From Cyanidioschyzon merolae (lineage: Eukaryota): 64,000 nucleotides of DNA. The DNA lies in NCBI GenBank assembly GCA_000091205.1, contig AP006501.2; one strand, 5' to 3'. Position numbers and translations under genes: made by a program. Numbering within the stretch: the first letter of the stretch is position 1; each line of letters begins with the position of its first letter. Below, in pieces: positions 9,791 through 57,699 of this stretch. A model generated the notes under the pieces. The model saw nothing but the letters and a program-made list of their open reading frames with translations, had not been told where the DNA came from and did not search any database.

Positions 9791-12700
9791 ATGGGCATTG
9801 CCTCGTTTTTTCGGTGGGTTGTAGCACGCTACCCCAGGGCGCTGCAGGCGGCCGTTGAGGAGGCCCCCGTCACCGATCAGGCGGCGCTCGAGAACGGGAA
9901 CTACCTTGACGACAACGATTATCTTCACGTCGACGTCAGTCTACCTAATCCTAACGGAGAGGAGTTCTCGAACCTGTACTTTGATCTGAACGGCGTTGTC
10001 CATATGTGCACGCACCCCGAAGACCGCCCGCCTCCGGCAACGGAGGAGGACATGTTTCAGGACGTCTTTCGGTATATGGACCGCATTGTTGCGCTAGTTC
10101 GACCTCGTCGTCTCATCTACATCGCTATTGACGGCGTTGCGCCGCGGGCGAAAATCAACCAGCAGCGCACGCGGAGGTTTCGGGCCGCCAAGGAAGCCCG
10201 TGAGAAAACGGAGGAAGAGGAGAAGCTGCGCGCACTTTGGCGAGAGCAGGGCCTTCGCGTGCCGCCGAAGCCGAAGAAACCCTTCGATAGCAATGTCATC
10301 ACACCTGGAACGCTGTTCATGGAGCGACTCGCTGTTGCGCTCCGGCGCTACATCCGTGAACGGATTCGCTCTTGTCCCGCCTGGCGTTCACTGGTCGTTA
10401 TCTTAAGCGACGCCAGTGTTCCCGGCGAAGGCGAGCACAAGATAGCAGAGTTCATCCGAACGCAACGAGCGCAACCGGGTTACGACCCGGAAACGCGCCA
10501 CGTGCTCTACGGACTGGATGCGGACCTTATCATGCTTGCGTTGGCAACGCATGAGCCCCATTTCTTCATCCTGCGCGAGCGCATATACTTTGACTCGCGG
10601 GCCGACAAGGCTATACAGGCTGTAAAGGCAATGAACGCACAACAGACGCCAGCGGGCGATCGTATTGATCACAAGACCGGGACGTCGGCTGGGCCTGGTC
10701 TTCCATTGCCAGAGCGGCCCTTTGACTTTTTCCGTATCGATCGTTTACGAGAGTACCTGCAAGCCGAGTTTCGGGACGCACTGCAGCATGACGCTGTGCG
10801 GCAACCTCGTGAGCCGCTTGACGTCGAAATCGCTCTCGACGACTTCGTGTTTCTGTGCTTCTTCGTGGGCAACGATTTCCTACCGCATTTACCTTCGTTG
10901 GAGATTCGTGAGGGTGCAATCGACTTCCTCCTCGAGGTATACAAGTATAAGTTTCAGCGGATTGGTCATCTCACGGATGGACACGGTGGCATCCATTTCG
11001 ATCGAGTTCGCGAGTTGCTTCGGGATGTTGCGCATGTAGAGGACAGCGTCTTTCGGGAGCGGGCTCGCGCCGCTGGCGAGCCCCCGACGCCGGTGTCACA
11101 GCATGCTGCGGTCGTGTCGGGAGCTTCCACGGCAGCTGCGCGGACCCATACGGTTCCGGAAGTGAGCGCCAAGAAAGAAAGCGTTTCCGCGTCTACCCTG
11201 AGCATCAAGGCAGATGCAGAGACACCGCCGTCTCCTGGTGTGCACGTAGACGAACTCGACGCAGGTGTCTCTGCGCCGCATCGACAGAAGCGACATGCGT
11301 CAGAACAACATCAGAAACGAGCTGCAACAGAGGCCGATCCTGGCCTGGGACTTGTACCTCTGCCCCGCAAACACGTTAAAGAGAACAGGGCAACTAGTTT
11401 GCGCGACTGGAAGCAGCTCGAGCATCATCGATCGGAAGCGGCTGTCTCGAACGAAATCGACAAGATCGAAGCGGAGTCCTCGCGCATCACTGCTGCTGGC
11501 GGGGATGCCGAACAGGCACTACAAGCACATTGCGAGCAGGTGCTCGCGTCCGTTGCAGCACCCGTTGAACCATCTGCTCGAGACGATGACAACGATCACG
11601 ATGACGATGGTGTTGATGGGACTAGAACAGCAGCAGCTGCTGCAGCTGAAAGCACGGGAGACAGCAACAGAAAGCGCGCTGACGGTGTCCGAGGGAAACG
11701 ACGACGAATCGTCGAAGAGGACTCGGAGGATGCATCTCCGCTGGGGCACGGAACGCGCCAAACGAGCACCCTCTCGCCCTCTGCAAGCACTGACCAGTGC
11801 TTGGCGTGCCCAGATGACGCAAACGCCACAGACACGATTCGCACCGCACTCGGAGATCATAGCAAAACAAGCAAGAAGAGCGGCGAGGGTGTCGATGCGA
11901 GCCTCGCGACGGGTCGGTTAGCAGCGGCGGAGGCGAACACTGCAGCATCGCTGGAGACAGCGACACTGCCGGCTGCCGCCGAGAGGCATCAGTCGGTAAC
12001 CGAGGCGTCCACCGAGACGCTCAGCGTTCCCGAAACTTTTGGTGAAGCGCCCGAATCGGACGATACTGATGATGATGATAATGAGGATGATGTTCTCGAC
12101 GAGGTCCTCGATCATTACACCGACGCTGCAGGTCGACAATTTGAACACATCCTGCGCGAGCGTCTCAAACAGCGACAAACGCGACCACCAACGGAAGAGG
12201 ATCCTGTCCGATTCCACTTGCCTGGTTGGAGGGAGCGCTACTATCAGAGCAAATTTCCGCATTGGCCGCCGCTTGACACCGAGGCCGGAGCCCAGGCGCT
12301 GCAGCGTCTCTGTCGTGCTTATTACGAAGGACTCTTGTGGGTATATCGTTATTACTATGCGGGATGTCCCTCATGGGGCTGGTTCTACCCCTATCATTAT
12401 GCACCACTCGCGAGCGATCTCGCCCAATGCTGCGTAGACCAGAAGGATATCGTGTTTGAGCGCGGTGCGCCGTTCACGCCCCTGGAGCAGCTCATGGCAG
12501 TTTTGCCAGCATCAAGCGGCGCCCAGTGCCTTCCGCGGATTCTCTACGAACTCATGATCAATCCGCATTCTCCGATTATCGAGTATTACCCGACAGATTT
12601 TGCGATCGATTATAACGGTAAGAGATTCGCCTGGCAAGGGGTTGCGCTCCTGCCTTTTGTCGACGAGCAACGTCTCCGTCTGGCTATACAGAGCGTTCTC

Positions 12701-17519: not shown

Positions 17520-18191
17520 TCAGAGGCGCTTGAGACTCCGACGCTTCTCGCGCATGCTTGCGCTCATGGCGCCTTGGTTTCCGAGGCCAAAACCACTGGG
17601 ACTCGAGTGGTGCTTCGAACCGGGTGTTGTTCCGGGAGTCTTGCGTTCGCTGGCAGGCCAGGATTTGGGTGCCATGTCCTCGCGTGTTGCAGCGGCACCG
17701 CCGCCACCAGTCCGCGGGGAGGCATGGACTTCCGTCCAGATTCGAGCTCGCGCTGCGAATGCTGCATAGTCCTCGAGTAAGAGTCGACCGGCTTCCTCAT
17801 TCAAGGCGCTCTCTGGATTCGGATCAATGAGCAGACATCGTATTACCGTGAGGACGTGCCGAATCCCATAGCTGCTCTGCCAATCGCGTTTCAGAGTATT
17901 GACGCAGATATCCCCCTGTTCGCTAACGTTGGGATGAAAGATTTTCGTCAAAAAGTAACCCCGAGGCGGCTGGTATGGGTACTCTCCAGAGAGTACGAGC
18001 TTGACTCGAAAGGAACCTGCTTCATATGGAGTATCCTCCGGACCGGTTATGACAGCATGGAGCTCGGTCAAAACGTCTTGACCGCTGTCGTTCAACAGCT
18101 CGACGCCGTGCACCGGTTCATCCCTCAAGCTCTGTACTTCCCGAAAGAGTCTCGTGATGACGCCTGGGGGTAGGTTCTCGCACAACGACAT
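17520..18191 (-). CDS. ubiquitin-conjugating enzyme E2 (UBC domain) with C-terminal low-complexity extension
   Basis: 223-aa ORF containing the UBC fold: FHPNV...GDICVNTLKRDW active-site Cys region and YPYQPP motif. Confidence 0.85.
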   Translation of the reverse strand: MSLCENLPPGVITRLFREVQSLRDEPVHGVELLNDSGQDVLTELHAVITGPEDTPYEAGSFRVKLVLSGEYPYQPPRGYFLTKIFHPNVSEQGDICVNTLKRDWQSSYGIRHVLTVIRCLLIDPNPESALNEEAGRLLLEDYAAFAARARIWTEVHASPRTGGGGAAATREDMAPKSWPASERKTPGTTPGSKHHSSPSGFGLGNQGAMSASMREKRRSLKRL

Positions 18192-18705
18192 GTTGATTTT
18201 TCAAGTACAGTGAAATCGATACGCGTTCCGAGCGTTGCAGCACCAGACGTTTCCCAGACGGAACGACACAATTCACGACCTGGTCGCACAGGCAGCAGAC
18301 TCGAACACACACACACGCACAGCAGGTACACGACGTCTCGCTGAGAGCCGCTATTGAATGCAAGCCCAGGTACCAAGCAGACCTGGTACACGGTGCCGTG
18401 CGCTTGCGGTCGTTGACTGCAAACCGCAACAGCCGTGCCCAAGACCGTTGGCGAACACCCAAGTCCTTGCGTAAACGAACGTGCTCTGCTTGCCGCACGT
18501 CAGTTGCGTAAGACCCTGTTGTAGACGACTGCCGACGGGATCGAGCACCCTGCGATCGTTGATGCGATTTTCGTAACCGCCGTTGCGAATCGAGCGTGTG
18601 GACGGGGCTTGCACTTGTGGGAAGTACGCTTGCCGTTTACAAGTAGAGGAATAGGATCGGAGGTTTGGATCTTGAATTTTAGGAAACAGACGGCAATTTT
18701 GTGTC

Positions 18706-20073
18706 CTCTACCCGTGTTCGTACAAAATGGAACGGGTGCGCGAACACAGGGGTGCACGCTAGAGCCTTGGTCTCTAGCTAGTGGTATCGACACCAGCGTC
18801 TGTGGCAACGCTGTGTGCGTGCTTCCTTTTCTGTTCACTTTCATGCGGTTGTATATTCTCCAGTGTACCCTTTTTTTGCAGATCCGTTCATAGCAGTCGA
18901 GAGACACTGCTAGTACTCTGAAAGTCCCAATATCGCTGGTCTCGGATGCCGTTCTCGCACCCTAGGCATAGAATGTCGTTGCGATCTAGACGCTGCATGC
19001 GAGAGTCATCGCCTTCGCATACAGACAGAGTGTACCACGCTCAGCGGTGACACGTCGCGGTACTCAGGGATTCCCGTATACCCACAATGCATCCCGTTCC
19101 GAAGCGCCGCCCTGTGCCGCGTGAGCACTTCCTTCGCCGTTCCGTGCATGTTGTTGACTGGTAAAGAAGGCTTCTGTCGATGCCTTCCTCCATTCCTGTG
19201 CCCGGTGACATGCACGATGATCACGGGCTCCATCTGGACGATTCCCGCGGCGAGTACGCTACCCGCTGGGCACGCAAGCGCACGCTGCTCCATGCGGTAG
19301 CGCAGCCATGGAATGCAGTATTGCCCGTGATGAAACAAGCACCTGAATGGAACTCCAGAATCGGGATCCAGGCGAGAAATCCAGGACGGTCCACGCTGCC
19401 TTCGTATGCGGCCGTGACGCGCTCATTAGTGGAACCGGTTGCGGCGATGACTGCAGCCCTCGTCCAGGACGCTATTCCATGCAAGCGGAATGCACAGAAG
19501 CTTCTGGGACCATACTTCGTGATGGGCAATGCTTGTGTCGGATCTCGGTTCGACGATAGCCACGGAGAGCGGCGGCTTTGTTTTTTCCAAATGGAACAGG
19601 CTTCCTGACGTAAGCGGTTCCATGAACTCGCCGCATGAGCCTGTGAATACGTCGCCAGCGGACATCGTCGCGTATTTTGTTTCCTCGTCAATCCAGAGAT
19701 CCGCATTGCTGCGTCCACGAGTTGCCTGAAACAGACACATCGAACACCTTGAAGAATGCGTGATTGACGCAGAGGCCAGGCAAGCAATCGAGAGGAATCG
19801 AGGCGACTGCACATGCGTGGATGATGGTATTGTTTTAATGATGCGAAACCCGTGATCGACGGCGCTGGAACTCATCATGATTCCGGTGGTGAAATCGAAT
19901 TGCAGCGTCAGGGAATCGAAGGAGCCTCCACGAAAACACGACCGAAAATATAAAATTCCGCATGCATCCCCAAGCTCTTGTTGCTCTACCTTGAACGTTG
20001 ATGCAGCCCAAGTAAAAAAGATCGAAAAATATCGAAAGATAGACGCAAAGCGTCTAATCCAATCGTCGATTTT
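18706..20073 (-). repeat. copy A1 of ~1.37-kb unclassified interspersed repeat (family A), inverted relative to A2
   Basis: Near-identical to 22581-23960 in reverse complement and to ~55425-56630 in the same orientation. Boundaries found by reading where the flanks diverge. The same sets of spurious ORFs recur in each copy. Confidence 0.85.
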
Positions 20074-21954
20074 ACACCAACATAGCTTCTAGCGAGCGCG
20101 TTCCTCATACCAACTGAGCACACACATAATCGCCCGCAAGGACGACGACACCGGTATGATCAGTAAAGCGATAAGCATTCTAGGACCATAGAGTCTATAT
20201 ATACAATCACTTACAGACGGCTCCTGGGCTTTTTCTGACCGGCCGAGTACTATCGGGTTCAGTTTCTCCCTGTACGCTTCGATCCTGAGAGTCTGACCCA
20301 TAAAGTTGGATCGCCTCAGCTCCTCGTGTCTCGTCTCCAGCGCCGCACATCGTCTGATACTGGTGGCCGCGTTGAACTCTCGGTTTTGCGAACGCTTTGC
20401 ATTTATTGACGCTACTTGAATGTACGTTTGGAACGATTGCCCGCACTCGTGCCCTCTGTGTCACCACAGTCTCGTCATTGTTCCGTCGGCCAAACACCTT
20501 TTCTCGTCTATCTTCCTATTCTGCTTCTGCTTCACATCCCCTTCTTCGCTAGCTGGTCGACGAGATGATGATATTTTCGATTTTTTGTCGAACCCGGCGA
20601 CACAGGACCTCAAGGATCCTCGACTTTCATATCCATACGGATCCCTTAGATTTTTTATTTCTTCAAAATGAGTACATTTATTGGTGCCTTTAGGCGAGTA
20701 TATTCCAGGAATATAAAGCACTTGCATAAGAAACACGTAATGTACCCCAGTGTCACCATGTGCTGGACGCTTCAGCGATTCGCTCAAGGGAGCTATCATT
20801 ACGTTTCACCATACAAAACACCCCTTCTATGAGGTCTAAACACGCAGAGCGCGGAAGAATGAAACGCAGCAGTATACCGCTAGAATCCGAAGAAAGCTAG
20901 AACGCAAGGACAATGGTGAAATACTACATTGTCCAATAGGAGGGCGTCGCCAGACCTCAGGAGAAGGTCTTCAATGATTCGACAAAGTGGTTGGTGCTGT
21001 TGGATGAGCCTTCTCGACGAGCGAAACTGAGGCCGCCAAATGAGTCTACCACGCCTAGCACGGATGATGTCGTCGTTTTCTTCAATTTTACGATCTTACA
21101 TACAACGAGCTCCCTCTCCCTGAATACCCAAACGCTCTACGACCGTTTCACCCGAAGCAAGTCTCATCGACTGAAAACACAAACCTACGTCCCTGTGCTT
21201 CATACCGATCGCAACGTTCCAAGAACGCTGTCACTGCTATTTAGGTGGAATATAATCGTAGGTGAAATTGGATTTTTGGGATTGTATCCTAGTGCTTGTC
21301 GAACTACACGAACAAGCTGTTCAGAGACAGAGACGCCCTTAGTGGCTACCATCGTGACTTTCGCTTTCTGTACGGTGGTCAACAGGTCGTTCTCTACCAC
21401 TGGCCGCTAGCAGTCTTTGAGAATAACCGTTTTTGGCACGGAGCACTGATACTTCTCTCTTTCAATGTCCCTCAACCATAAGAGTACTTTGGTATGACTG
21501 ACCTTATGAAAGAATGCAATTCTCCTTGCACTTTTCAGTAAATCACGTATCCTACATTGAATTCGTCCACGATTTAAACGGTACACTGCATCGTGCTTTC
21601 AATTTCCTGCTCGATGCACTGGAAAAAAAGCATTCGATGACAGGCAGCAGTTGTGGAGCACATCTGAGCTGAATGTGAAGTTAAGATACGAAGCATGCAC
21701 CGCGCGTGCGAACATTTGAAGATGGCGCTCGTGGCTACCCGCCTCGAGTACAGGTCAGGTCATCGCTCAGGCCGTTGCACACTGGCTACGCGCTTGACGT
21801 GCGGGCAAAGAACTGGAAACCGAGGTTCACTGGTGAGTGCACAACTTTCGTCGTTCGATTAAAAGGAACTTGAGAAGCGCGCACGTGACGACCGGTTTGG
21901 CGTCGCCTTCGGAGACGCTTCACCAGGGCGATATCTGCTCCTAGATGGTTATCG

Positions 21955-22580: not shown

Positions 22581-23960
22581 TTATCAGGTGAAAATCGACG
22601 ATTGGATTAGACGCTTTGCGTCTATCTTTCGATATTTTTCGATCTTTTTTACTTGGGCTGCATCAACGTTCAAGGTAGAGCAACAAGAGCTTGGGGATGC
22701 ATGCGGAATTTTATATTTTCGGTCGTGTTTTCGTGGAGGCTCCTTCGATTCCCTGACGCTGCAATTCGATTTCACCACCGGAATCATGATGAGTTCCAGC
22801 GCCGTCGATCACGGGTTTCGCATCATTAAAACAATACCATCATCCACGCATGTGCAGTCGCCTCGATTCCTCTCGATTGCTTGCCTGGCCTCTGCGTCAA
22901 TCACGCATTCTTCAAGGTGTTCGATGTGTCTGTTTCAGGCAACTCGTGGACGCAGCAATGCGGATCTCTGGATTGACGAGGAAACAAAATACGCGACGAT
23001 GTCCGCTGGCGACGTATTCACAGGCTCATGCGGCGAGTTCATGGAACCGCTTACGTCAGGAAGCCTGTTCCATTTGGAAAAAACAAAGCCGCCGCTCTCC
23101 GTGGCTATCGTCGAACCGAGATCCGACACAAGCATTGCCCATCACGAAGTATGGTCCCAGAAGCTTCTGTGCATTCCGCTTGCATGGAATAGCGTCCTGG
23201 ACGAGGGCTGCAGTCATCGCCGCAACCGGTTCCACTAATGAGCGCGTCACGGCCGCATACGAAGGCAGCGTGGACCGTCCTGGATTTCTCGCCTGGATCC
23301 CGATTCTGGAGTTCCATTCAGGTGCTTGTTTCATCACGGGCAATACTGCATTCCATGGCTGCGCTACCGCATGGAGCAGCGTGCGCTTGCGTGCCCAGCA
23401 GATAGCGTACTCGCCGCGGGAATCGTCCAGAAGGAGCCCGTGATCATCGTGCATGTCACCGGGCACAGGAACGGAGGAAGGCATCGACAGAAGCCTTCTT
23501 TACCAGTCAACAACATGCACGGAACGGCGAAGGAAGTGCTCACGCGGCACAGGGCGGCGCTTCGGAACGGGATGCATTGTGGGTATACGGGAATCCCTGA
23601 GTACCGCGACGTGTCACCGCTGAGCGTGGTACACTCTGTCTGTATGCGAAGGCGATGACTCTCGCATGCAGCGTCTAGATCGCAACGACATTCTATGCCT
23701 AGGGTGCGAGAACGGCATCCGAAACCAGCGATATTGGGACTTTCAGAGTACTAGCAGTGTCTCTCGACTGCTATGAACGGATCTGCAAAAAAAAGGTACA
23801 CTGGAGAATATACAACCGCATGAAAGTGAACAGAAAAGGAAGCACGCACACAGCGTTGCCACAGACGCTGGTGTCGATACCACTAGCTAGAGACCAAGGC
23901 TCTAGCGTGCACCCCTGTGTTCGCGCACCCGTTCCATTTGGTACGAACACGGGTAGAGGC
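22581..23960 (+). repeat. copy A2 of family-A repeat; begins 24 bp after the rhodanese stop codon
   Basis: Reverse-complement match to A1 along its whole length. ORF-track proteins in A1 and A2 differ by only a few residues. Confidence 0.85.
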
Positions 23961-31749: not shown

Positions 31750-32814
31750 GAGGGCGCGTTCCGTGGCAGGCTGTTGCGCACAGATAGGTTGCTGTCGCGC
31801 GCCTGGCTCTGTCCCAGGTCTCGGACGATGGAGTGGAGCGTTTCGGTTGACCCAGTGCTATCGCAATGTCTCCAGGAAATGTAAAGCAATAGAAAACTTT
31901 TGAGCAGGTACCTTCAGGAATCCGTAGAGCCCTTGCTGCTGTTTCGTGATCCCACGTCTCCCAGATGACAGGTCAGGGGGCGGTTGCATCGGGAATGCGG
32001 TGGCTGAACAGGATGCCGGTCGTCGATCCGGTGGATACGCTTGCCCGCTAGCCGAGTCCAGATCCGAGTGAACGATTTCGTTTGCAACTGGAGACCGCCT
32101 TGCACTGCATTCATGCTGTGACAGTGAAGATTCCGGGATTCCGTAACTGCGCTCGATCGCAGTGATGTTGCAGCTCGCGGCAAAAGACGTCTAGCGACAC
32201 CACCACGGACGCACGCTCACGAATATCGATGCTGAAAGAGCAGCTGTGGTTCCATGTCGGTTTTTCGGAAGAGTTCAAATATGGCAGGCGACGAGCGTTG
32301 CCAGCGTTGGATACCCTAGAGAGAACGACAACAGGGAAGCATACGAGTCTAGCGTACCGCGAACGAATATCAAGTCCGTCCCTGGCCTATCCACTATTGC
32401 GCAGATGGACGTGGGCACCAGATCGTTACACCCGTGAGCAAATACTTCTCCATGTCGTTGTCTGTAAAGCCTGCGCCTTATAATTCTATCAAGAACCATG
32501 AAAAGACATACGCGAAGAAATCAAGCCTTACAAAGGGCCGCAAAACATCAACGCCATCTGTGTCGTCGCAAAGCACCTACGCAGAAACCCGTCATGGCCA
32601 TAGCACGATCCTGTGGCACCGAGACTTGGCATCCATTGTTATGTGAAGGCAGATATTCCATGAATTCTACCAGACCCATGTCAGAGGAACATGGAACGTG
32701 TCTACTCTGCTGACTCGGGCGTACAATCGAAAGTTTGGGACTCTTTTTAATGCCATCAGCACCAATATTCGCCGAATTTTGCGTGACTGCTTCTTTTTGT
32801 GTTTCATGTCCCGA

Positions 32815-34050
32815 TTTAGATACGCAGGTGTCTCTCGTGTACCGCCAGATCCATTGCCAACAGTCGAAAGATGATGTACGCTTTCAAGTCCTGATTCCGC
32901 TGCTTCCGGCTGCCGTTCATGGAGTACGAGGACCAGGGAAGACAACGATTTTCGCATTGCTTTTCATCTTTCATCTCGCTTGTATTCACCCTCGGTGCGC
33001 CGCTCACAACCGTGACACATGACTGAGGTCAGCAGTTCCTCTGCTGCACAACACGCTCTCCTCCGAATGCCGCCCTGGAGCGCGTGAACGCCTCGTTCAT
33101 CGCTCGCGAGATGCCCATGGCGAGCACAGAAGGCCACCCGCGTTGCCGTCCTCTGTTTCAGCACCCAGTACGGTACCCTGTGATCACGGGCTTCTTCGGG
33201 ATGATCCCCAGTGTACCTGGTGTGTTTGCGGTACGCGCAAGCACATGCTGTCGCCGTCAATAGATGGTGTGCGGAACCCGCTCATGCCCCCGAGGGATCA
33301 CGTGCCGGAAGGCGAATCGGGCCCGGAGACCCGATCGAGCGGGTGTCGCAACGTCGACGCTCCCTTCGTGCAAGGCGGTGACGTGTGATCGGTTGGATGC
33401 ATCCGGTACAACGAATCAAGTCCGAACTCCAGACTCTTTTCCGTACAAGTAGATTAGCGGGAAGCCTCTGAGAGCCGATGCCCTGAGAGCTATCACGCTT
33501 CTGTCGAGATCCGTTTTGTCGCTGAGTTCACAGAGACTAGGACTTGCGTTTCGAACGGAATCGTTGATTAGATGTGATTTGTTCAGGAAACGCTCGGAAT
33601 GCACTTGTGCACACATCGTCAGGGCACGACGTCGCGCTCGTTCCCCAGTGCATCCAGCGCCGCGCATTGCCGCGCCCACGAGTTGATTCAGAACTGAGAG
33701 AAGATCGAAAACGTGCACGAACGCGTGAGCCTCTCATGCAGCATGTGAGGAATGGAGAAGAACAGAGGCTTTCGCGTACGAGCTGGATGACGACACTGGT
33801 TATTTTACGAATCGCTATTCGATGAAGTTGCGAAATATCTTGAGTTCCAGTGACTCGACGAATTCCAGTAGCAATGGTTCGAGGTCATTTTGCGGAAAAA
33901 CGGCGACTGGGAACGCTAAACTTACGCATGAGTCCGTAAGCCCTGCTTGCTCTACGTCGAATATCGATGCTGTTCATCTAGAACAAGTTCGGAAAACAAT
34001 CCCCAGGCAGAAAGAGGTCACCCATTCAAGTGTTCTTTCCGAATGGAACA
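32815..34050 (+). repeat. copy B1 of ~1.24-kb repeat (family B, distantly related to family A); ends ~200 bp upstream of the PrxQ start
   Basis: Near-identical to 38011-39250 (offset ~5196 bp), starting at tttagatacgcaggtgtctctcg. Identity decays gradually after ~34030/39230. Confidence 0.85.
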
Positions 34051-34257
34051 CGATTGTATGCTCTGCGCAGCGTTGCTGCAGCCGTTTGCTGTACGCGCCA
34101 GTCGTACCTGCATATAGCCGCATGGCATTGCGCTGGATGCGCCGCTTCAGCGCACAGCGTCTGTTGCGCAGATCGCCAGCTGCGGCGACACAGCGAGATG
34201 CGGGGCGCGCACTCAGGCCGATACCTGCGTCGCTGTGGTACCCGTTGAACGAGGAGC

Positions 34258-34562
34258 ATGTTTATCAGTTCGACGCCCTGTGTACGAGGCTCTGTGAGGA
34301 GTTTGAGTGTGCATTCACTTTCGAGACAGCTAGGTACCCGGTATTTCGTGCAAAGCAAGCACCAATCCCGTGTACGGCTTCGCACTTGCGTTATCCCCAC
34401 TGGTCCCGGCTCACTCCAGCGGACGGTGTGGTGTATGGAGCTCCAGGTGGGAGACGCGGCACCTGATTTTCAGATGCCGACTGACCAGGGCGGTCAAGTT
34501 TCACTGAAAGACTTTCGGGGGCGTCCAGTGGTACTCTACTTTTATCCGAAAGCCAATACACC
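34258..34562 (+). CDS. PRXQ: peroxiredoxin Q / BCP-type thiol peroxidase, exon 1 (possible targeting peptide; alternative start at 34435 MELQVGDAAPDF)
   Basis: AAPDF...FRGRPVVLYFYPKANTP is followed directly by a GTAAGT donor. Joining it to exon 2 restores the conserved FYPKxxTPGCTTQAC active site. Confidence 0.82.
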
Positions 34563-34678
34563 GTAAGTTGACGTGCAAACTGCTTGACGACGCTTGGCAC
34601 CAGAACCAGAGACTAACCGCAAGGGAGCACTTGGCTAGGGCTGCTTTTGCAGCACCGGGCTGGTACGCGAAATCGCAG
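34563..34678 (+). other. spliceosomal intron (116 nt) in PrxQ: GTAAGT donor, ACTAAC branch-like motif, AG acceptor
   Basis: Only this acceptor (…gaaatcgcag|t ggt tgt acg aca cag…) restores the frame and the PGCTTQACDLRD peroxidatic-Cys motif. The alternative acceptor at 34652 gives the wrong frame. Confidence 0.8.
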
Positions 34679-35027
34679 TGGTTGTACGACACAGGCTTGT
34701 GACTTGCGTGACAATATCGAGGACCTCAATAAAGTGGATGCCGTGGTTATCGGAGTTTCGCGTGACCCTGTCGCTGACTTAGCCAAGTTTCGGAAAGATC
34801 ATGGCCTCAACTTCTACCTCGCGTCCGATGCAGACGGATCCGTCACGGAAGCTTACGGAGTGTGGAAGTTGCGTAAGATGATGGGTCGCGAGTTCATGGG
34901 TATTGAACGCAGTACATTCATCATTCAGGACGGCGTGATTCGCAAACTGTGGCGCGGCGTGAAGGCCCCAGAGCATATCGCGTGGGTAAAGCGCTCGTTA
35001 GAAGAAATGAAAGCAGGTGCGAAGTAG
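34679..35027 (+). CDS. PRXQ: peroxiredoxin Q / BCP, exon 2
   Basis: GCTTQACDLRD...VVIGVSRD...LASDADGSVTEAYGVW...ERSTFIIQDGVIRKLW matches the BCP/PrxQ family. Stop at 35025-35027. Confidence 0.85.
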
Positions 35028-37256: not shown

Positions 37257-38010
37257 ACCCGCCATAACATTGGACATTGTCAGTCATGTACAACGCTGAA
37301 ATGAGGCGCCAGATGTGCATGGAGTCCGCAAACAACATCTGATAGCGCTCGGGACGCTTAACAAGAGTCAGCGACCAGGAAATCATCCTAGTTCTTGATC
37401 ATTTCAAAACATTTGTCAACGAAACCGGGTCCTGCACGCTGGTTATTTTTCGCGCGAGGCTGTACTCGCTCCATGTACTGTTCCGTTGCAGCGTCACGAA
37501 TGCGGAATTTTCACGAGCGAATCTGAACAGTCTCTGTGCGATACACGGCTTTCAGTTAACCAGCGAGCTCTGTCCGTGCACTGCGCTTGCTCTACGCTTC
37601 ACGGACTGCGCAGTCGGCCAACTGCCGCCGGTGTGCGTTCAAACTTTGGGTGAACAGCGCAAGCGACCAGCGTATCAGGCATAGTGCTGAAGTCAAACTG
37701 AACGACGCAACGCTCTGTAACTGAGAATCAGCTCCGCCGATTCAGGGAGATGCACCCAAAGAAACGGTGAAAACAACGTAAAGAATCGAAGGGCTCTCAG
37801 ACCGACGTGGCGTTGGTACGCACTGGCTTGATGAAGCGCTCGTAACAGTAATCGAATGCAGTTACACGAGTGCCAGACTACAAGGAAAACAGTTCCGCTT
37901 AGCTAACTCGGGTGTACGAGCGAAAGCTTGCGCTGTTTCCAACTGTCATCAGCGTCAGCCTTGCGAGCTTTCTCTGCGACCGCTTCCTTTGCCTCTCTTG
38001 TATCTGCGGC

Positions 38011-39250
38011 TTTAGATACGCAGGTGTCTCTCGTGTACCGCCAGATCCATTGCCAACAGTCGAAAGATGATGTACGCTTTCAAGTCCTGATTCCGCTGCT
38101 TCCGGCTGCCGTTCATGGAGTACGAGGACCAGGGAAGACAACGATTTTCGCATTGCTTTTCATCTTTCATCTCGCTTGTATTCACCCTCGGTGCGCCGCT
38201 CACAACCGTGACACATGACTGAGGTCAGCAGTTCCTCTGCTGCACAACACGCTCTCCTCCGAATGCCGCCCTGGAGCGCGTGAACGCCTCGTTCATCGCT
38301 CGCGAGATGCCCATGGCGAGCACAGAAGGCCACCCGCGTTGCCGTCCTCTGTTTCAGCACCCAGTACGGTGCCCTGTGATCACGGGCTTCTTCGGGATGA
38401 TCCCCAGTGTACCTGGTGTTTTTGCGGTACGCGCAAGCACATGCTGTCGCCGTCAATAGATGGTGTGCGGAACCCGCTCATGCCCCCGAGGGATCACGTG
38501 CCGGAAGGCGAATCGCGCCCGGAGACCCGATCGAGCGGGTGTCGCAACGTCGACGCTCCCTTCGTGCAAGGCGGTGACGTGTGATCGGTTGGATGCATCC
38601 GGTACAACGAATCAAGTCCGAACTCCAGACTCTTTTCCGTACAAGTAGATTAGCGGGAAGCCTCTGAGAGCCGATGCCCTGAGAGCCATCACGCTTCTGT
38701 CGAGATCCGTTTTGTCGCTGAGTTCACAGAGACTAGGACTTGCGTTTCGAACGGAATCGTTGATTAGATGTGATTTGTTCAGGAAACGCTCGGAATGCAC
38801 TTGTGCACACATCGCTAGGGCACGACGTCGCGCTCGTTCCCCAGTGCATCCAGCGCCGCGCATTGCCGCGCCCACGAGTTGATTCAGAACTGAGAGAAGA
38901 TCGAAAACGTGCACGAACGCGTGAGCCTCTCATGCAGCATGTGAGGAATGGAGAAGAACAGAGGCTTTCGCGTACGAGCTGGATGACGACACTGGTTATT
39001 TTACGAATCGCTATTCGATGAAGTTGCGAAATATCTTGATTTCCAGTGACTCGACGAATTCCAGTAGCAATGGTTCGAGGTCATTTTGCGGAAAAACGGC
39101 GACTAGGAACGCTAAACTTACGTATGAGTCCGTAAGCCCTGCTCGCTCTACGTCGAATATCGATGCTGTTCATCTAGAACAAGTTCGGAAAACAATCCCC
39201 AGGCAGAAAGAGGTCACCCATTCATGTGCTCTTTCGGAATGGAATCCAAT
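38011..39250 (+). repeat. copy B2 of family-B repeat; ends ~50 bp upstream of the ETF-beta start codon
   Basis: See B1. Embedded ORF-track proteins differ from B1 by single residues. Confidence 0.85.
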
Positions 39251-39300: not shown

Positions 39301-39778
39301 ATGCCTCCCCCCTGCTTCAGGGTTCTAGTTGGCGTGAAAAGAGTTGTTGATTATGCAGTCAAAGTTAGGATCACACCAGATCACAGTGGAGTGGATACCG
39401 CGAACCTTAAAACCTCCATGAACCCGTTCTGTGAACTCGCTGTTGAGGCTGCAGTGCAGCTGCGCGAACGCCTCGGTCCGGAGCGCGTGCCCGAAATCGT
39501 CGCTGCCAGTGTGGGCCCCACAGCGTGCCAGGAGACCCTGCGGACAGCGCTTGCCATGGGAGTCGATCGTGCCGTACTCGTGAACACCGACGCAGCACCA
39601 GTGTCCGACTCCAAAGCGGGTAGCGCGCTGCAGCCGGAGCCGTTAGATGTTGCGCGGACGCTGGCGGCGCTTCAGTCGCGACTCCAGTCGAACTTGATTC
39701 TGCTTGGGAAGCAAGCTATTGATGACGATTCGAACCAGACAGGCCAACTGCTGGCTGGAATTTTGAACTGGTCACAAG
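39301..39778 (+). CDS. ETFB: electron transfer flavoprotein beta subunit, exon 1
   Basis: MPPPCFRVLVGVKRVVDYAVKVRITPD...MNPFCELAVEAAVQL...GKQAIDDDSNQTGQLLAGILNWSQ, immediately followed by a GTAAGT donor. Confidence 0.85.
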
Positions 39779-40022
39779 TAAGTGAAGCTCGATGAGCACC
39801 AGGTTGACGCCTCTGCGCCTCAGATGATGAACGCATCAGCCGCTTTTCACGACGGTCTACTGAGTTGAGAACGATGCGGATAAAGGCTTGCATCGTAGAG
39901 ATGCTCTGATGAGGCGCACAGATAATCGATCTACGACGGGGCAACTGTCGCGGCGATGAGACGCTTGGCAGCGATGAGAACCTAGATAACTAACCACGGC
40001 ATGCAACGACGCTGATACCCAG
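39779..40022 (+). other. spliceosomal intron (244 nt) in ETFB: GTAAGT donor, TAACTAAC branch-like motif ~35 nt upstream of the CAG acceptor
   Basis: Joining 39778|40023 gives ...NWSQ|GTFLSKIEAEKEQDLLQVDREVDEGIERLRL..., matching the ETF-beta consensus (WPQGTFASKVE...REIDGGLETLRL). Confidence 0.82.
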
Positions 40023-40367
40023 GGAACTTTTCTCTCCAAGATCGAGGCCGAAAAAGAGCAAGATTTGCTGCAAGTCGACCGTGAAGTTGATGAAGGAATT
40101 GAACGGCTCCGGCTTCGACTGCCGAGTGTACTGACTTGCGACTTGCGCCTGAACAAACCACGATACATAACGTTGCCGAACCTGATGCGAGCGAAAACGA
40201 AACCGATTGAAACGCTCAGTACGAGCGACCTCGGCGTTGCGTTGCGAACGTACTGGCAAATTGTTCGCGTCGACGAACCACCCGCTCGCCGTCAAGTCAC
40301 GATGCTCAAAACTGTCGATGAGCTGGTGGCGAAACTCCAGCAACTAGGCGTTTTGGACCGCGCTTGA
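40023..40367 (+). CDS. ETFB: electron transfer flavoprotein beta subunit, exon 2
   Basis: C-terminal ETF-beta block LRLNKPRYITLPNLMRAKTKPIE...VDELVAKLQQLGVL. Confidence 0.85.
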   Translation, partial: GTFLSKIEAEKEQDLLQVDREVDEGIERLRLRLPSVLTCDLRLNKPRYITLPNLMRAKTKPIETLSTSDLGVALRTYWQIVRVDEPPARRQVTMLKTVDELVAKLQQLGVLDRA

Positions 40368-43463: not shown

Positions 43464-45956
43464 TTATCGTTCCGACCCCGACGCACGTGCGTGCCGCGAA
43501 CGGTAGCGGCATGGGCGCACATGTCGCGCTTTGGATGCGAGGCCGTCAGTGGACGCGTGTGCTTCACAGGGCGCGCTCGCTGACATGCTACGGAGGATGT
43601 GCAGCTCTCTAGGCGGGATTCTCGACGGTTTTGCGTCGGAGACACATGACGGGGCGAGACGACCCAGCCAGTGCCAAAGGCTTTGCTGGTGAAGACGTTT
43701 CACTCGATACAACTGTGCTTTGTGTTCGTGTAGCTGGGCATGGAGCTGCGCGTTTTTGTACTCGGCTGCCTTGGCTTCCCAGGAGAGGCGCTCTAATCGT
43801 TCAACAAGCCCAGTCCTTTGTCGTGAAAGAGCAACGATACATTTGGTGGCCTTTGTACGCTGCTGTGCCTCGCGCACGAGGCACTGCTGCAGCCGTAACC
43901 ATAGGCTGTAATAGTGGTTTGCGTAAAAAGCCCAGGATATGTAGAACAGGAGCCACATAGGCGGAAGAACGCGTACGTGCTGTTCGTGATCCTGTTTGCC
44001 CAGCAGCGGCAACTGATGCCGGCTTTCCACAGATGGCAATAGCTCGGGACGATTATGCCCACGGCGTATGCTCCGATGTGTGCAAACCGCGGGCCAATCT
44101 CGTGAATTAGACTGGCTGAGGTCTGGGGCGTCTGCGCTCTCAGAACGCGAGCTCGACTGATCCGTAACGAAAGAGTTCGAGCCGTCCGGATCAACAGGCA
44201 CCGCCTTTCCGACCCGCTGCCTCGTCGTCCATAGCGCCTTCTCGAGCTCTGCAATGCGTTCGTCGCGCTCCAGGAAGCGAGCTTGCATACAGAGTAGGTG
44301 CGTTGAAAGTTCCTCATTGGCAGCGCGAAGGGTGTCTACCTGTTGAGCCCGCATTTCCGCCTCCACATAGGACGATTGCAGCATCCGTATTATTTTCTGT
44401 TGCTGTTCACAATGAGCTTCCATCGAACTCAAAAGACGGCTCATCGCTGATTCGCGCTCGTTGAGGCTCTCCCGAGACGCACGGTACTCTCCAAGTACCT
44501 GAGCGATTTCACGGACCTCTTTCATCTTATCGACGAGTTGCTCTCGCAGTTCAACGTATTGCCGTCTCGACGTTATTAGAGCTTCTTGCAAATTGTGAAT
44601 CTGCTTATAGAGCGCTTGAGTTTGTGCCTCTGTAGCATCTATGGAAGAGGTTTCCTCCTGGACAGAGACCGGAGGCCACGCAGCAAGCGCTCCGGCGGAC
44701 GCATGAGCGAGCGCCGCTTTGTGCGGCTGCCCGAGGGATTCGTCCGTATCAGCGCGTGGCGTTGACATTGCCTGCAGGCACCCGATCGAGGCATGCTGCA
44801 GACTTGTGGTGGGTATCTGAGTTGCGTCTTTCGTGCCCTTGGCTGCATCGAGCGTGTGCGCTTCCGGGATACCGCCGGATGACGGCTGGCTACGAGCCGA
44901 GTCTCCAACTTGATCGCATATCTCAGCATCCGCGTGAAACGAGTTCGTCCAATGAGATGCGTCCTGCCCGTTCTCTTTTTCGCAGTTTGACAATGGATGC
45001 ACATCATCTAAGTCTTTCATGATCGCCGTGATGAACTCCTGATCCGTGCTCCCATCCAGGGCGCTAGGATCTGGTTTCGCATCCCTGGAGACGGCCGGAG
45101 GTCGTAAAAGCTGCTTGATCCGAAAGCCGTCCACGCGTGTCGAGCAGTTGGACCCCTCTGAAGTGCTCTGGTCTTTTTCTGGAACTTTCGGAGCCCCTGT
45201 GTGCAAAGCAAGCGCCGCTGTCGTCATCCTTTCTAGATCAGCGCTGTCTGTGATGGATTCTGAACCTGAGCAAAGCTGCTCTCGAAATACACGCTCGACG
45301 CTTGCTTCGGTACACTCGTGCTCGAGCTCAGTGATTCGACGATCCTGCGCTTCAGCTCGTTCCAGGAGAGCCGCAGCTATCCCCAGAGCCTGCTTTAGGC
45401 CGGCCTCAAGTAACAGAGCAGCCACAAGTGCTATCTGAGAGGCAACCACTGGACGATGCTCACGTTGAACAGCGGTCCGATAGTGCTGCAGACGCCCTGC
45501 TGAATCAAGCAGATATGGTACATAATGCATGGTCACGAGTTGTCGTCTAATGCTGTCCAGTGTCGGGAAACCAGTCAGGTCCCTTCGTTGCGGGAAAAGC
45601 TCCCGCTGAAACCCAAGTCCTGCGCAAGTCAAGGGTTGCATACAAATTCCTAATCTAGAAGGGTTTCCTATCTGTTCGGGCCCATGTTCTGCGAGCAGCA
45701 CCAGAAAAATTTCTTGATCATGGAGTGATTCTGGTATGCTGCTCTCTAGGCCACGAGCCAGCTGAGCGAGCGCTTCCGAGCGCTCCTGCAGCGGTGGTGC
45801 AAGCAACAAATTCAGCGGCTCACCGCGGTTCTGTTTCTGTGTGTTTCCCGAAAAACCAACTCCGGGACTTGCGCCAGGTTCATTTTCTTTCTCGTTAGTG
45901 CGGTAGGCTTCCAGGGTCTGAACGACACCATCGAAATCCGGTCCCATGAAAGACAT
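43464..45956 (-). CDS. hypothetical large coiled-coil protein with a hydrophobic segment near the C-terminus
   Basis: 830-aa uninterrupted ORF with a long heptad-like region (…LREQLVDKMKEVREIAQVLGEYRASRESLNERESAMSRLLSSMEAHCEQQQKIIRMLQ…) and a TM-like stretch MWLLFYISWAFYANHYYSLWL. No specific family recognised. Confidence 0.5.
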   Translation of the reverse strand: MSFMGPDFDGVVQTLEAYRTNEKENEPGASPGVGFSGNTQKQNRGEPLNLLLAPPLQERSEALAQLARGLESSIPESLHDQEIFLVLLAEHGPEQIGNPSRLGICMQPLTCAGLGFQRELFPQRRDLTGFPTLDSIRRQLVTMHYVPYLLDSAGRLQHYRTAVQREHRPVVASQIALVAALLLEAGLKQALGIAAALLERAEAQDRRITELEHECTEASVERVFREQLCSGSESITDSADLERMTTAALALHTGAPKVPEKDQSTSEGSNCSTRVDGFRIKQLLRPPAVSRDAKPDPSALDGSTDQEFITAIMKDLDDVHPLSNCEKENGQDASHWTNSFHADAEICDQVGDSARSQPSSGGIPEAHTLDAAKGTKDATQIPTTSLQHASIGCLQAMSTPRADTDESLGQPHKAALAHASAGALAAWPPVSVQEETSSIDATEAQTQALYKQIHNLQEALITSRRQYVELREQLVDKMKEVREIAQVLGEYRASRESLNERESAMSRLLSSMEAHCEQQQKIIRMLQSSYVEAEMRAQQVDTLRAANEELSTHLLCMQARFLERDERIAELEKALWTTRQRVGKAVPVDPDGSNSFVTDQSSSRSESADAPDLSQSNSRDWPAVCTHRSIRRGHNRPELLPSVESRHQLPLLGKQDHEQHVRVLPPMWLLFYISWAFYANHYYSLWLRLQQCLVREAQQRTKATKCIVALSRQRTGLVERLERLSWEAKAAEYKNAQLHAQLHEHKAQLYRVKRLHQQSLWHWLGRLAPSCVSDAKPSRIPPRELHILRSMSASAPCEAHASTDGLASKARHVRPCRYRSRHARASGSER

Positions 45957-55424: not shown

Positions 55425-56630
55425 GGTGTATATTCTCCAGTGTACCTTTTTTTTTGCAGATCCGTTCATAGCAGTCGAGAGACACTGCTAGTACTCTGAA
55501 AGTCCCAATATCGCTGGTTTCGGATGCCGTTCTCGCACCCTAGGCATAGAATGTCGTTGCGATCTACACGCTGCATGCGAGAGTCATCGCCTTCGCATAC
55601 AGACAGAGTGTACCACGCTCAGCGGTGACACGTCGCGGTACTCAGGGATTCCCGTATACCCACAATGCATCCCGTTCCGAAGCGGCGCCCTGTGCCGCGT
55701 GAGCACTTCCTTCGCCGTTCCGTGCATGTTGTTGACTGGTAAAGAAGGCTTCTGTCGATGCCTTCCTCCATTCCTGTGCCCGGTGACATGCACGATGATC
55801 ACGGGCCCCTTCTGGACGATTCCCGCGGCGAGTACGCTACCCGCTGGGCACGCAAGCGCACGCTGCTCCATGCGGTAGCGCAGCCATGGAATGCAGTATT
55901 GCCCGTGATGAAACAAGCACCTGAATGGAACTCCAGAATCGGGATCCAGGCGAGAAATCCAGGACGATCCACGCTGCCTTCGTATGCGGCCGTGACGCGC
56001 TCATTAGTGGAACCGGTTGCGGCGATGACTGCAGCCCTCGTCCAGGACGCTATTCCATGCAAGCGGAATGCACAGAAGCTTCTGGGACCATACTTCGTGA
56101 TGGGCAATGCTTGTGTCGGATCTCGGTTCGACGATAGCCACGGAGAGCGGCGGCTTTGTTTTTTCCAAATGGAACAGGCTTCCTGACGTAAGCGGTTCCA
56201 TGAACTCGCCGCATGAGCCTGTGAATACGTCGCCAGCGGACATCGTCGCGTATTTTGTTTCCTCGTCAATCCAGAGATCCGCATTGCTGCGTCCACGAGT
56301 TGCCTGAAACAGACACATCGAACACCTTGAAGAATGCGTGATTGACGCAGAGGCCAGGCAAGCAATCGAGAGGAATCGAGGCGACTGCACATGCGTGGAT
56401 GGTGGTATTGTTTTAATGCTGCGAAACCCGTGATCGACGGCGCTGGAACTCATCATGATTCCGGTGGTGAAATCGAATTGCAGCGTCAGGGAATCGAAGG
56501 AGCCTCCACGGAAACACGACCGAAAATATAAAATTCCGCATGCATCCCCAAGCTCTTGTTGCTCTACCTTGAACGTTGATGCAGCCCAAGCAAAAAAGAT
56601 CGAAAAATATCGAAAGATAGGCGCAAAGCG
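55425..56630 (-). repeat. copy A3 of family-A repeat (slightly truncated or diverged at both ends), between ITPK1 and the UBE2J-like gene
   Basis: Same-orientation match to A1 from gtatattctccagtgtacc to cgaaagatag.cgcaaagcg. Contains the same spurious ORF set as A1 and A2. Confidence 0.82.
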
Positions 56631-56679
56631 AGTCATTCCATGTTCCATTATAATCTGACATGAGTGTAGGCAGGCACTG

Positions 56680-57699
56680 GTGTTCAGGTACGCTCCTCCG
56701 AATTTTATTCTGAACGCTCCGGCTCTGGCTACCTATACGGATCACGTTTTCGATGAGATGAAGCGCTCAGACAACGGAAAGCGACCAGCGGTTTCCGCTT
56801 CTGCCAAGAGAATCATGCAGGAACTAGCAGAACTAGCTCGCGAGCCTTCAACGTTGTTTGAGGTGCGTGCCCTTGACGATGACCTTTTTGAAGTGCACTT
56901 TACCATCCGTGGCCCCGCGGACTCACCCTTTGAGGAAGGACTCTACCACGGAAGAATACTGCTTCCTCCCGAGTACCCGTATAAGCCGCCGGAAATCATG
57001 CTCCTGACACCGAACGGTCGCTTCGAAACGGGGAAACGCATCTGCCTCAGCGTGACCCAGCACCACGTGGAGACCTGGCAGCCAAGTTGGGGAATACGTA
57101 CTATCCTGACGGCGCTGATTGGATTTATGCCTACTCGCGGAGATGGTGCTGTCGGGGCCCTCGACTTTACTGAGGAAGAACGTCGTCAGCTGGCGTGCGC
57201 CTCGCGACGCTGGTCTTGTGCCCGGTGTGGTATGGACCATAGCAGTTGGAAGAGTTCAGCGTCCACTTCGGCTGAAGCCCACCGGGTCTCATCTGAAGAG
57301 ACAAGCAACGAGGGATATGTGGGAAACCTCCCGGGCACTGATGGGCACGAGAGCCGGTGCATTTCGCACGAGCCAGCTGCCTCACCGGGAACCGAGCCAA
57401 TAGCGTCTGCGATGCCCACGACGCCTGCAGCTCCAGAGGAGCTTCCAGAGGCGTCGACCTCATGGCATCATGAGAAAGAAGCGCAGGCGTCTGGGAGCCA
57501 GCTGATGCTGCCAGCGATGCAAGTGCCCGAAACGGCAAGGCATTCGAGCGCATCAGACTGCAGCTCGACAGAAAAGAGCATGCCCCACGATTCGCGGACG
57601 ACAGCTACGACGGAAACCATGCTGGAGAGCGTCGATCGACTGCTAACCTACGTCATTATTGCACTGGTCTGCGCATTGACCACAGTTTGGTTTCTTTAA
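56680..57699 (+). CDS. ubiquitin-conjugating enzyme E2 J-type (Ubc6-like, C-terminal tail anchor); probable true start at Met27 (56758)
   Basis: UBC fold with LPPEYPYKPPEIMLLTPNGRFE..RICLSV...HHVETWQPSWGIRTIL. Long S/T/P/E-rich linker, then a C-terminal hydrophobic anchor LLTYVIIALVCALTTVWFL. Confidence 0.82.
   Translation: MFRYAPPNFILNAPALATYTDHVFDEMKRSDNGKRPAVSASAKRIMQELAELAREPSTLFEVRALDDDLFEVHFTIRGPADSPFEEGLYHGRILLPPEYPYKPPEIMLLTPNGRFETGKRICLSVTQHHVETWQPSWGIRTILTALIGFMPTRGDGAVGALDFTEEERRQLACASRRWSCARCGMDHSSWKSSASTSAEAHRVSSEETSNEGYVGNLPGTDGHESRCISHEPAASPGTEPIASAMPTTPAAPEELPEASTSWHHEKEAQASGSQLMLPAMQVPETARHSSASDCSSTEKSMPHDSRTTATTETMLESVDRLLTYVIIALVCALTTVWFL

Follow-up and report, generated by a model that had tools for sequence, protein, structure and literature searches.

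Two previously annotated introns of Cyanidioschyzon merolae at conserved positions, one of them with a candidate box C/D snoRNA

In a 64,000-nucleotide stretch of the Cyanidioschyzon merolae genome (contig AP006501.2 of assembly GCA_000091205.1; referred to as the window in the following), the genes for a bacterial-type PrxQ/BCP peroxiredoxin and for the β-subunit of the electron transfer flavoprotein (ETFB) are each interrupted by a genuine U2-type spliceosomal intron with yeast-like signals. Both introns are already known: since the spliced products equal the database entries BAM82899.1 and BAM82901.1, they are annotated at exactly these junctions in the reference genome for C. merolae 10D, and as such they add nothing to that annotation. 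What is added here is a candidate snoRNA carried by the ETFB intron and the conservation of both intron positions across genera. Overall, we consider it very likely that the window holds two already annotated, canonical introns of ancestral origin which are removed by U1-less splicing, that the ETFB intron hosts a snoRNA, and that the proximity of the two is a matter of chance.

The number of introns in C. merolae was originally given as 27 and stands at 39 today. According to its CMS locus tags, the window is part of chromosome S, and it holds two of the few dozen canonical introns of this genome. The pair can illustrate why a handful of introns persist in a genome from which almost all others have gone.

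Splice signals and spliced products

Both genes, together with all intron and snoRNA features given below, are located on the plus strand. The first exon of the PrxQ/BCP gene (34258–34562) codes for an N-terminal extension of 60 aa, which is presumably a targeting peptide, and for the beginning of the AhpC-TSA domain; its last two bases are the CC of the proline codon in the active-site motif PGCT. The intron (34563–34678; 116 nt, phase 2, GT-AG) features the 5′ splice site GTAAGT (34563–34568), the branch site ACTAACC (34612–34618, with the branch A at 34616) and the 3′ splice site CAG (34676–34678). The second exon (34679–35027, including the stop codon) supplies the third base of the proline codon and continues with GCTTQAC, which holds the peroxidatic and the resolving cysteine; upon removal of the intron, CC|T is read as proline and the junction as ...YFYPKANTP|GCTTQACDL.... 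The spliced product, starting with the ATG at 34258, has 217 residues and is identical to BAM82899.1/XP_005538935.1 in every one of them, an entry deposited as ‘similar to bacterioferritin comigratory protein’. The Pfam domain AhpC-TSA (PF00578) is matched across the junction (E=3e-39), and the best matches in the PDB are structures of BCP (bacterioferritin comigratory protein). Together with the AhpC-TSA fold, the peroxidatic motif PxxxTxxC, which has a resolving cysteine five residues further on, assigns the protein to the PrxQ/BCP subfamily; the respective segment reads PKANTPGCTTQAC.

The ETFB gene is composed in the same manner of a first exon at 39301–39777, a phase-0 GT-AG intron of 245 nt at 39778–40022, and a second exon at 40023–40367, including the stop codon. 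The 5′ splice site is again GTAAGT (39778–39783), the branch site ACTAACC (39989–39995, with the branch A at 39993) lies within TAACTAACC (39986–39995), and the 3′ splice site CAG (40020–40022) ends in the first AG past the branch. Translated from the ATG at 39301, the spliced product (273 aa) equals BAM82901.1/XP_005538937.1 residue for residue, which has been deposited as ‘similar to electron-transfer-flavoprotein, beta polypeptide’. It contains a full-length ETF domain homologous to that of mitochondrial ETFB: the Pfam domain ETF (PF01012) spans the junction (E=6e-32), and the alignment with human ETFB (1efv_B; E=1e-80, residues 6–268), which also supports the second exon, is free of gaps at the junction WSQ|GTF. 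In the protein cluster at 90% identity to which the annotated ETFB belongs, there is no second full-length spliced product.

A preliminary description of the window, made from the DNA and its open reading frames, had already placed the PrxQ intron at 34563–34678 with its GTAAGT donor and had recognized a yeast-like ACTAAC branch motif in both introns, and in these points it is borne out. Its ETFB intron is equally real, but the proposed start at 39779 and length of 244 nt are off by one, as GTAAGT begins at 39778. It had further held that each open reading frame ends exactly at its donor. This is the case for PrxQ, where an in-frame TAA (34564–34566, intron bases 2–4) overlaps GTAAGT, but not for ETFB, where the in-frame TGA (39793–39795, intron bases 16–18) follows five codons past the donor. 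Likewise, the notion that only one AG can serve as the acceptor in each intron does not hold for the reading frame, which is left open by three AGs in PrxQ and by five in ETFB, but it does hold for conserved sequence: PGCTTQAC is restored by the AG ending at 34678 alone, and a gap-free alignment with human ETFB is obtained from the one ending at 40022 alone. Unspliced RNA of either gene would meet an early in-frame stop, and functional protein would require splicing; judging from the literature, both introns would be spliced out by the spliceosome of C. merolae, which is reduced and has no U1.

In the PrxQ intron, the branch A and the 3′ splice site are 62 nt apart, and on the way four AGs (at 34622, 34626, 34637 and 34651) are passed over, including one at 34626–34627 that would leave the frame open. 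In the orthologous intron of Cyanidiococcus, the branch site is similarly far from the 3′ AG, with several AGs skipped; in that of Cyanidium, it is much nearer. An occluding hairpin as the cause of the four skipped AGs in C. merolae is unsupported (z = −1.2 and −0.5 compared with shuffled sequences).

At the level of motifs, ACTAACC occurs exactly twice on the two strands of the window, once in each intron and each time downstream of GTAAGT, and a scan of the window for GTAAGT...ACTAAC...AG returned the PrxQ and ETFB sites and no others. Since simulated sequence is expected to yield 0.35 occurrences of this loose signature, we place weight on the restoration of reading frame and homology rather than on motif counts. 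In both introns, these coincide: GUAAGU stands at the exon boundary, ACUAACC upstream of the 3′ AG, and removal of the intervening sequence restores an open reading frame along with its homology. No other candidate for an ACTAAC-type intron was found in the window; the lone ACTAAC on the minus strand, at 45899, was discarded, as it lies within the coding sequence of CMS317C and has no upstream donor.

Conservation of the intron positions

In the syntenic loci of Cyanidiococcus-like organisms (L001, L002 and, from strain 8.1.23 F7, L011), the interruptions of the two genes fall at the same codons. In L001, the PrxQ intron (9894–10011) measures 118 nt and agrees in codon and phase with that of C. 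merolae; the ETFB intron measures about 263 nt in L001 and 245 nt in L011 (6472–6716). In Cyanidium caldarium, the PrxQ intron (L006, 10309–10415; 107 nt) again interrupts the same codon in the same phase, here with a GCAAGT donor and hence GC-AG boundaries, and an ETFB intron of 231 nt (L010) is found at the same site. For ETFB, the position is even shared with Rhodosorus marinus (L012), whose gene has an 86-nt phase-0 intron at WPQ|GTF, together with a second intron that is absent from the Cyanidiophyceae; the ETFB locus of the plant Phalaenopsis (L013) covers residues 1–122 only. Because the positions are common to Cyanidioschyzon, Cyanidiococcus and Cyanidium, and in the case of ETFB also to Rhodosorus, the comparison indicates that both are retained ancestral introns and not gains. 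The preliminary description had proposed such a comparison of orthologous loci, and its outcome speaks for retention.

The same comparison bears on a different explanation, namely that the interruptions reflect frameshifted or decaying pseudogenes or assembly errors and that the splice-like motifs are coincidental; frameshifted pseudogenes had been put forward in the preliminary description itself as a possible refutation. At face value, it accounts for the fact that both first-exon reading frames end in a stop codon and that a prokaryote-style gene caller splits each gene in two. Against it stand breaks at the same codon and in the same phase in three genera, where the intron sequences differ while GTAAGT, ACTAACC and AG remain constant, as well as the full-length proteins obtained upon intron removal, with their active-site and family-wide alignments intact. 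Moreover, environmental contigs exist that lack exactly the 116 nt of the PrxQ intron, and both introns are part of the reference annotation. We regard this alternative as effectively refuted and give it practically no chance of being correct.

Several observations on the orthologous loci deserve mention in their own right. PrxQ of Cyanidium caldarium reads PGCTTQAR and is thus without the resolving cysteine present in C. merolae and Cyanidiococcus. Its identity to the C. merolae protein (61%) is about level with that of the closest relatives outside the Cyanidiophyceae, which are bacterial BCPs (53–61% identity), those with a species name being mostly alphaproteobacterial. The Cyanidiococcus-like organism represented by L001 and L002 (JGI samples 3300051397 and 3300039285) is markedly unlike strain 8.1.23 F7 (L011), with ETFB introns of about 263 and 245 nt, respectively, and different terminal stems of the snoRNA described below; it may constitute a separate species.

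A box C/D snoRNA candidate in the ETFB intron

Judged by its boxes, guide and terminal stem, by an Rfam alignment and by its conservation in four lineages, the ETFB intron carries a box C/D snoRNA candidate at 39815–39917, a cargo that had been overlooked in the preliminary description, even though the interruption had been correctly recognized as a spliceosomal intron. A terminal stem of 8–9 bp, formed by GCGCCTCA (39815–39822) and TGAGGCGC (39910–39917), closes box C (ATGATGA, 39824–39830) and box D (CTGA, 39906–39909). Between them lie box D′ (CTGA, 39860–39863), directly preceded by the guide TTTTCACGACGGTCTA (39844–39859), and a degenerate box C′ (ATGCGGA, 39874–39880), which in Cyanidium has the form ATGTAGA. 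The candidate therefore combines boxes C and D closed by a terminal stem with an rRNA-complementary guide of at least 10 nt next to box D′, as is characteristic of box C/D RNAs.

When the ETFB introns are aligned, the snoRNA stands out as a conserved core within otherwise divergent sequence; between C. merolae and Cyanidiococcus, it is 81% identical, compared with 56–70% for the remainder of the intron. A 13-nt guide, TTCACGACGGTCT(A/G), is invariant in C. merolae, Cyanidiococcus and Cyanidium, and the guide next to box D is unconserved. The terminal stems differ in sequence in all four lineages and nevertheless keep their complementarity, with helices of 9, 9, 7 and 4 bp within species compared with 0–6 bp for pairings across species. 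Searches against Rfam gave no match at the gathering level anywhere in the window. Below that level, family RF00328 (snoZ161_228) aligns over its full length to 39817–39915 (25.1 bits, E=0.015) and with the same guide, and Plasmodium snoR20 aligns there as well. From this shared guide, the candidate would be expected to work like a member of RF00328, but it is not filed as one here, because its 25.1 bits do not reach the family's gathering score (45 bits).

The LSU rRNA of Eukarya as well as of Archaea contains the complement of the guide, TAGACCGTCGTGAG(ACAG), which falls close to position 2960 in the eukaryotic model of Rfam. Placed in the stretch from the 5′ splice site to the branch point, the snoRNA of about 100 nt would pair through its D′ guide with the conserved LSU rRNA sequence UAGACCGUCGUGAG. 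By the box D′ + 5 rule, the predicted target of 2′-O-methylation would be the first C of ACC, which is the C marked by an asterisk in UAGAC*CGUCGUGAG of the 25S rRNA. This position would correspond to yeast Cm2959, the site of snR73, and to the site of human SNORD35.

Such a cargo would offer a plausible selective reason for keeping the ETFB intron, which would then be the source of a predicted, conserved rRNA-methylation guide. The PrxQ intron has no conserved core across its orthologues and appears to be a plain intron without RNA cargo, since the 49 nt from its 5′ splice site to its branch site are too short for an RNA of the box C/D type; yet it has remained at the same codon in three genera.

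Environmental contigs without the PrxQ intron

Two JGI contigs from samples 3300050369 and 3300057245 (L004 and L005) agree with the window at about 99.3% identity and are missing precisely 34563–34678; the PrxQ intron is retained in contigs L007, L008 and L009. L004 and the intron-containing L009 agree in four SNPs, and the extra SNP of L005 recurs in L008. Given these SNPs shared with intron-containing contigs, L004 and L005 look like spliced PrxQ RNA from the same population as the unspliced transcripts. There is a Yellowstone project whose metatranscriptomes are dominated by C. merolae, and the source project of the contigs plausibly includes such metatranscriptomes, of the poly-A and RiboMinus kinds; about half of the C. 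merolae transcripts are reported to stay unspliced; spliced and unspliced forms of PrxQ are therefore both to be expected. The two intron-less contigs start at 34243 (L004) and 34224 (L005), just upstream of the ATG, as transcripts would, and the intron-containing L008 and L009 are fused to unrelated sequence (their positions 1–229 and 1–596) at 34239 and 34249 of the window. These fusions are probably chimeric transcript assemblies that mark a transcription start near 34224–34249. In L009, the foreign head consists of an Rpn13 gene that is AT-rich and comes from a different organism.

As an alternative, L004 and L005 could represent the genome of a wild C. merolae strain from which the PrxQ intron was precisely lost by a cDNA-mediated event, which would make it a presence/absence polymorphism. 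The extent of L004 (4.1 kb, with two genes and intergenic DNA) would fit genomic DNA. However, its haplotype is that of L009 and the extra SNP of L005 is that of L008, the starts of the two contigs lie within 20 nt of each other at the very place where intron-containing contigs join foreign sequence, and a source project that plausibly includes metatranscriptomes would yield both forms if about half of the transcripts are unspliced. We therefore think it improbable that an intron-less allele has been captured, and prefer to read the two contigs as spliced RNA. For ETFB, a search of the metagenome contigs with the spliced junction gave no match, but neither did the positive control, for which the spliced PrxQ junction of L004 and L005 was used, and the negative thus carries no information on ETFB splicing.

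Local intron density and shared sequence elements

The preliminary description had considered two introns in one window to be an anomalous density that might be informative about species assignment. With 27–39 introns in 16.6 Mb, a 64-kb window is indeed expected to hold only 0.10–0.15 introns. Genome-wide, however, 1.3–2.7 windows of this size are expected to contain at least two, and the probability that some pair of introns falls within 5.5 kb of each other is 0.21–0.39. Two introns about 5 kb apart are thus a chance cluster and unremarkable. Nor does their density have a bearing on the species, as three open reading frames of the window exactly match the C. merolae 10D entries BAM82902.1, the 830-aa CYME_CMS317C and CYME_CMS323C, which identifies the window as C. 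merolae 10D itself.

For the density to be truly anomalous, the window would have to come from another, more intron-rich species or strain, or the introns would have to be recent local gains. Besides the low expectation for a single window, two features could be taken as favouring this: the introns share a C. merolae-specific block upstream of their branch sites, and a copy of one 1.34-kb repeat is found a short distance upstream of each gene. Yet the proteins of the window are identical to C. merolae 10D entries, clusters of this kind are expected by the figures above, both positions predate the split of Cyanidioschyzon, Cyanidiococcus and Cyanidium, with the one in ETFB shared by Rhodosorus as well, and the Cyanidiococcus loci have both introns without the 1.34-kb repeat. 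We hold an anomalous density to be very improbable and maintain that the two introns are close to each other by chance.

The shared block itself (34585–34611 and 39957–39988; about 30 nt) has the form TGA(C)GACGCTTGGCA...AGAACC(T)AGA and includes the exact 11-mer GACGCTTGGCA at 34589–34599 and 39960–39970, which occurs nowhere else in the window. With the splice signals removed, its local alignment has P=0.0065, for a similarity that was noticed post hoc. No such block was seen between the corresponding PrxQ and ETFB introns of Cyanidiococcus or Cyanidium. A view of the two introns as a pure chance cluster leaves this block unexplained. It could stem from ectopic gene conversion between the two introns, or it could act in cis as an element peculiar to C. 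merolae, such as the binding site of a splicing factor in a U1-less system, while a weaker variant would have the intron of the BCP gene gained after the transfer of the gene; we judge these readings to be unlikely, if less so than the alternatives discussed so far. If the weaker one were true, a BCP of bacterial origin would have acquired its intron following its transfer, and this in a lineage that is known, apart from this, for losing introns. In this regard, no HGT candidate of C. merolae 10D was found to carry an intron (Rossoni et al., 2019). Recurrence of GACGCUUGGCA and of the pre-branch block in other C. merolae introns would point to a cis element, whereas restriction to this pair would point to gene conversion or chance.

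Of the two copies of the 1.34-kb direct repeat (32709–34048 and 37902–39244; 96% identity, 3 gaps), the first ends 210 nt upstream of the start codon of PrxQ and the second 57 nt upstream of that of ETFB. As the syntenic Cyanidiococcus loci are shorter by about 1.3 kb at both places, the repeats look like insertions specific to C. merolae. A second repeat family has three copies of about 1.2–1.37 kb with 98–99% identity (18705–20078, 22587–23959 in inverted orientation, and 55427–56658), two of which adjoin genes for ubiquitin-conjugating enzymes (17520–18191 on the minus strand and 56680–57699 on the plus strand). A Pfam search with the open reading frames of both repeat families gave no matches, and an exact look-up of one repeat reading frame gave none either. 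The window also contains a short tandem repeat (2069–2304) with a period of about 67 nt, whose copies are roughly 80% identical.

Comparison with known systems

The introns of hemiascomycetes such as Saccharomyces cerevisiae resemble those of C. merolae in their near-invariant 5′ splice site, their branch site of the UACUAAC type and their low number per genome, a likeness that a preprint abstract also points out. The consensus of the yeast 5′ splice site is GUAUGU. C. merolae differs in using GUAAGU and in having a spliceosome without a U1 snRNP.

The candidate snoRNA has its closest known counterparts in plant Z161/Z228 (RF00328, clan CL00056) and Plasmodium snoR20 (RF01596), with which it has the guide UCACGACGGUC in common. 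This is, we presume, also the guide of the yeast snR73/human SNORD35 group, which methylates C2959 of the 25S rRNA. In the alignment with RF00328, boxes C and D and the terminal stem all correspond, as does the guide that immediately precedes D′; the differences lie in the score, which at 25.1 bits remains short of the gathering score of 45, and in the second guide, that of box D, which is unconserved.

Within the Cyanidiophyceae, the recent survey of the ‘intronome’ by Slat, Stark and Rader 2026 (10.64898/2026.05.17.725761) lists 39 introns for C. merolae, in which GUAAGU, ACUAACC and AG are near-invariant. Phase 2 is the commonest, and 85% of the introns have an early in-frame stop (Slat, Stark and Rader, 2026). 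Both introns of the window match this consensus exactly and have early stops, and that of PrxQ is in phase 2. PrxQ departs from it in its 62-nt distance between branch A and AG, with four AGs skipped, and in the GC-AG donor of its Cyanidium orthologue.

A further point of reference is provided by Geertz et al. 2025 (10.1101/2025.12.01.691491), who reported stable RNAs from 23 of the 39 C. merolae introns, comprising 11 box C/D snoRNAs, the RNase MRP RNA and 11 ‘sieRNAs’. The introns that bear snoRNAs are given in aggregate, Q117 being the only one named (Geertz et al., 2025), and neither this preprint nor that of Slat et al. names a snoRNA in the ETFB intron. The PrxQ intron is unlike the introns with stable RNAs in being too short to hold one. 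The ETFB candidate, by contrast, resembles these RNAs in its length of about 100 nt, inside their range of 82–1298 nt, and in having been kept in other thermophilic red algae. It probably belongs to the 11 intronic box C/D snoRNAs of Geertz et al. (2025), in which case its coordinates, boxes, guide and predicted target would be directly testable.
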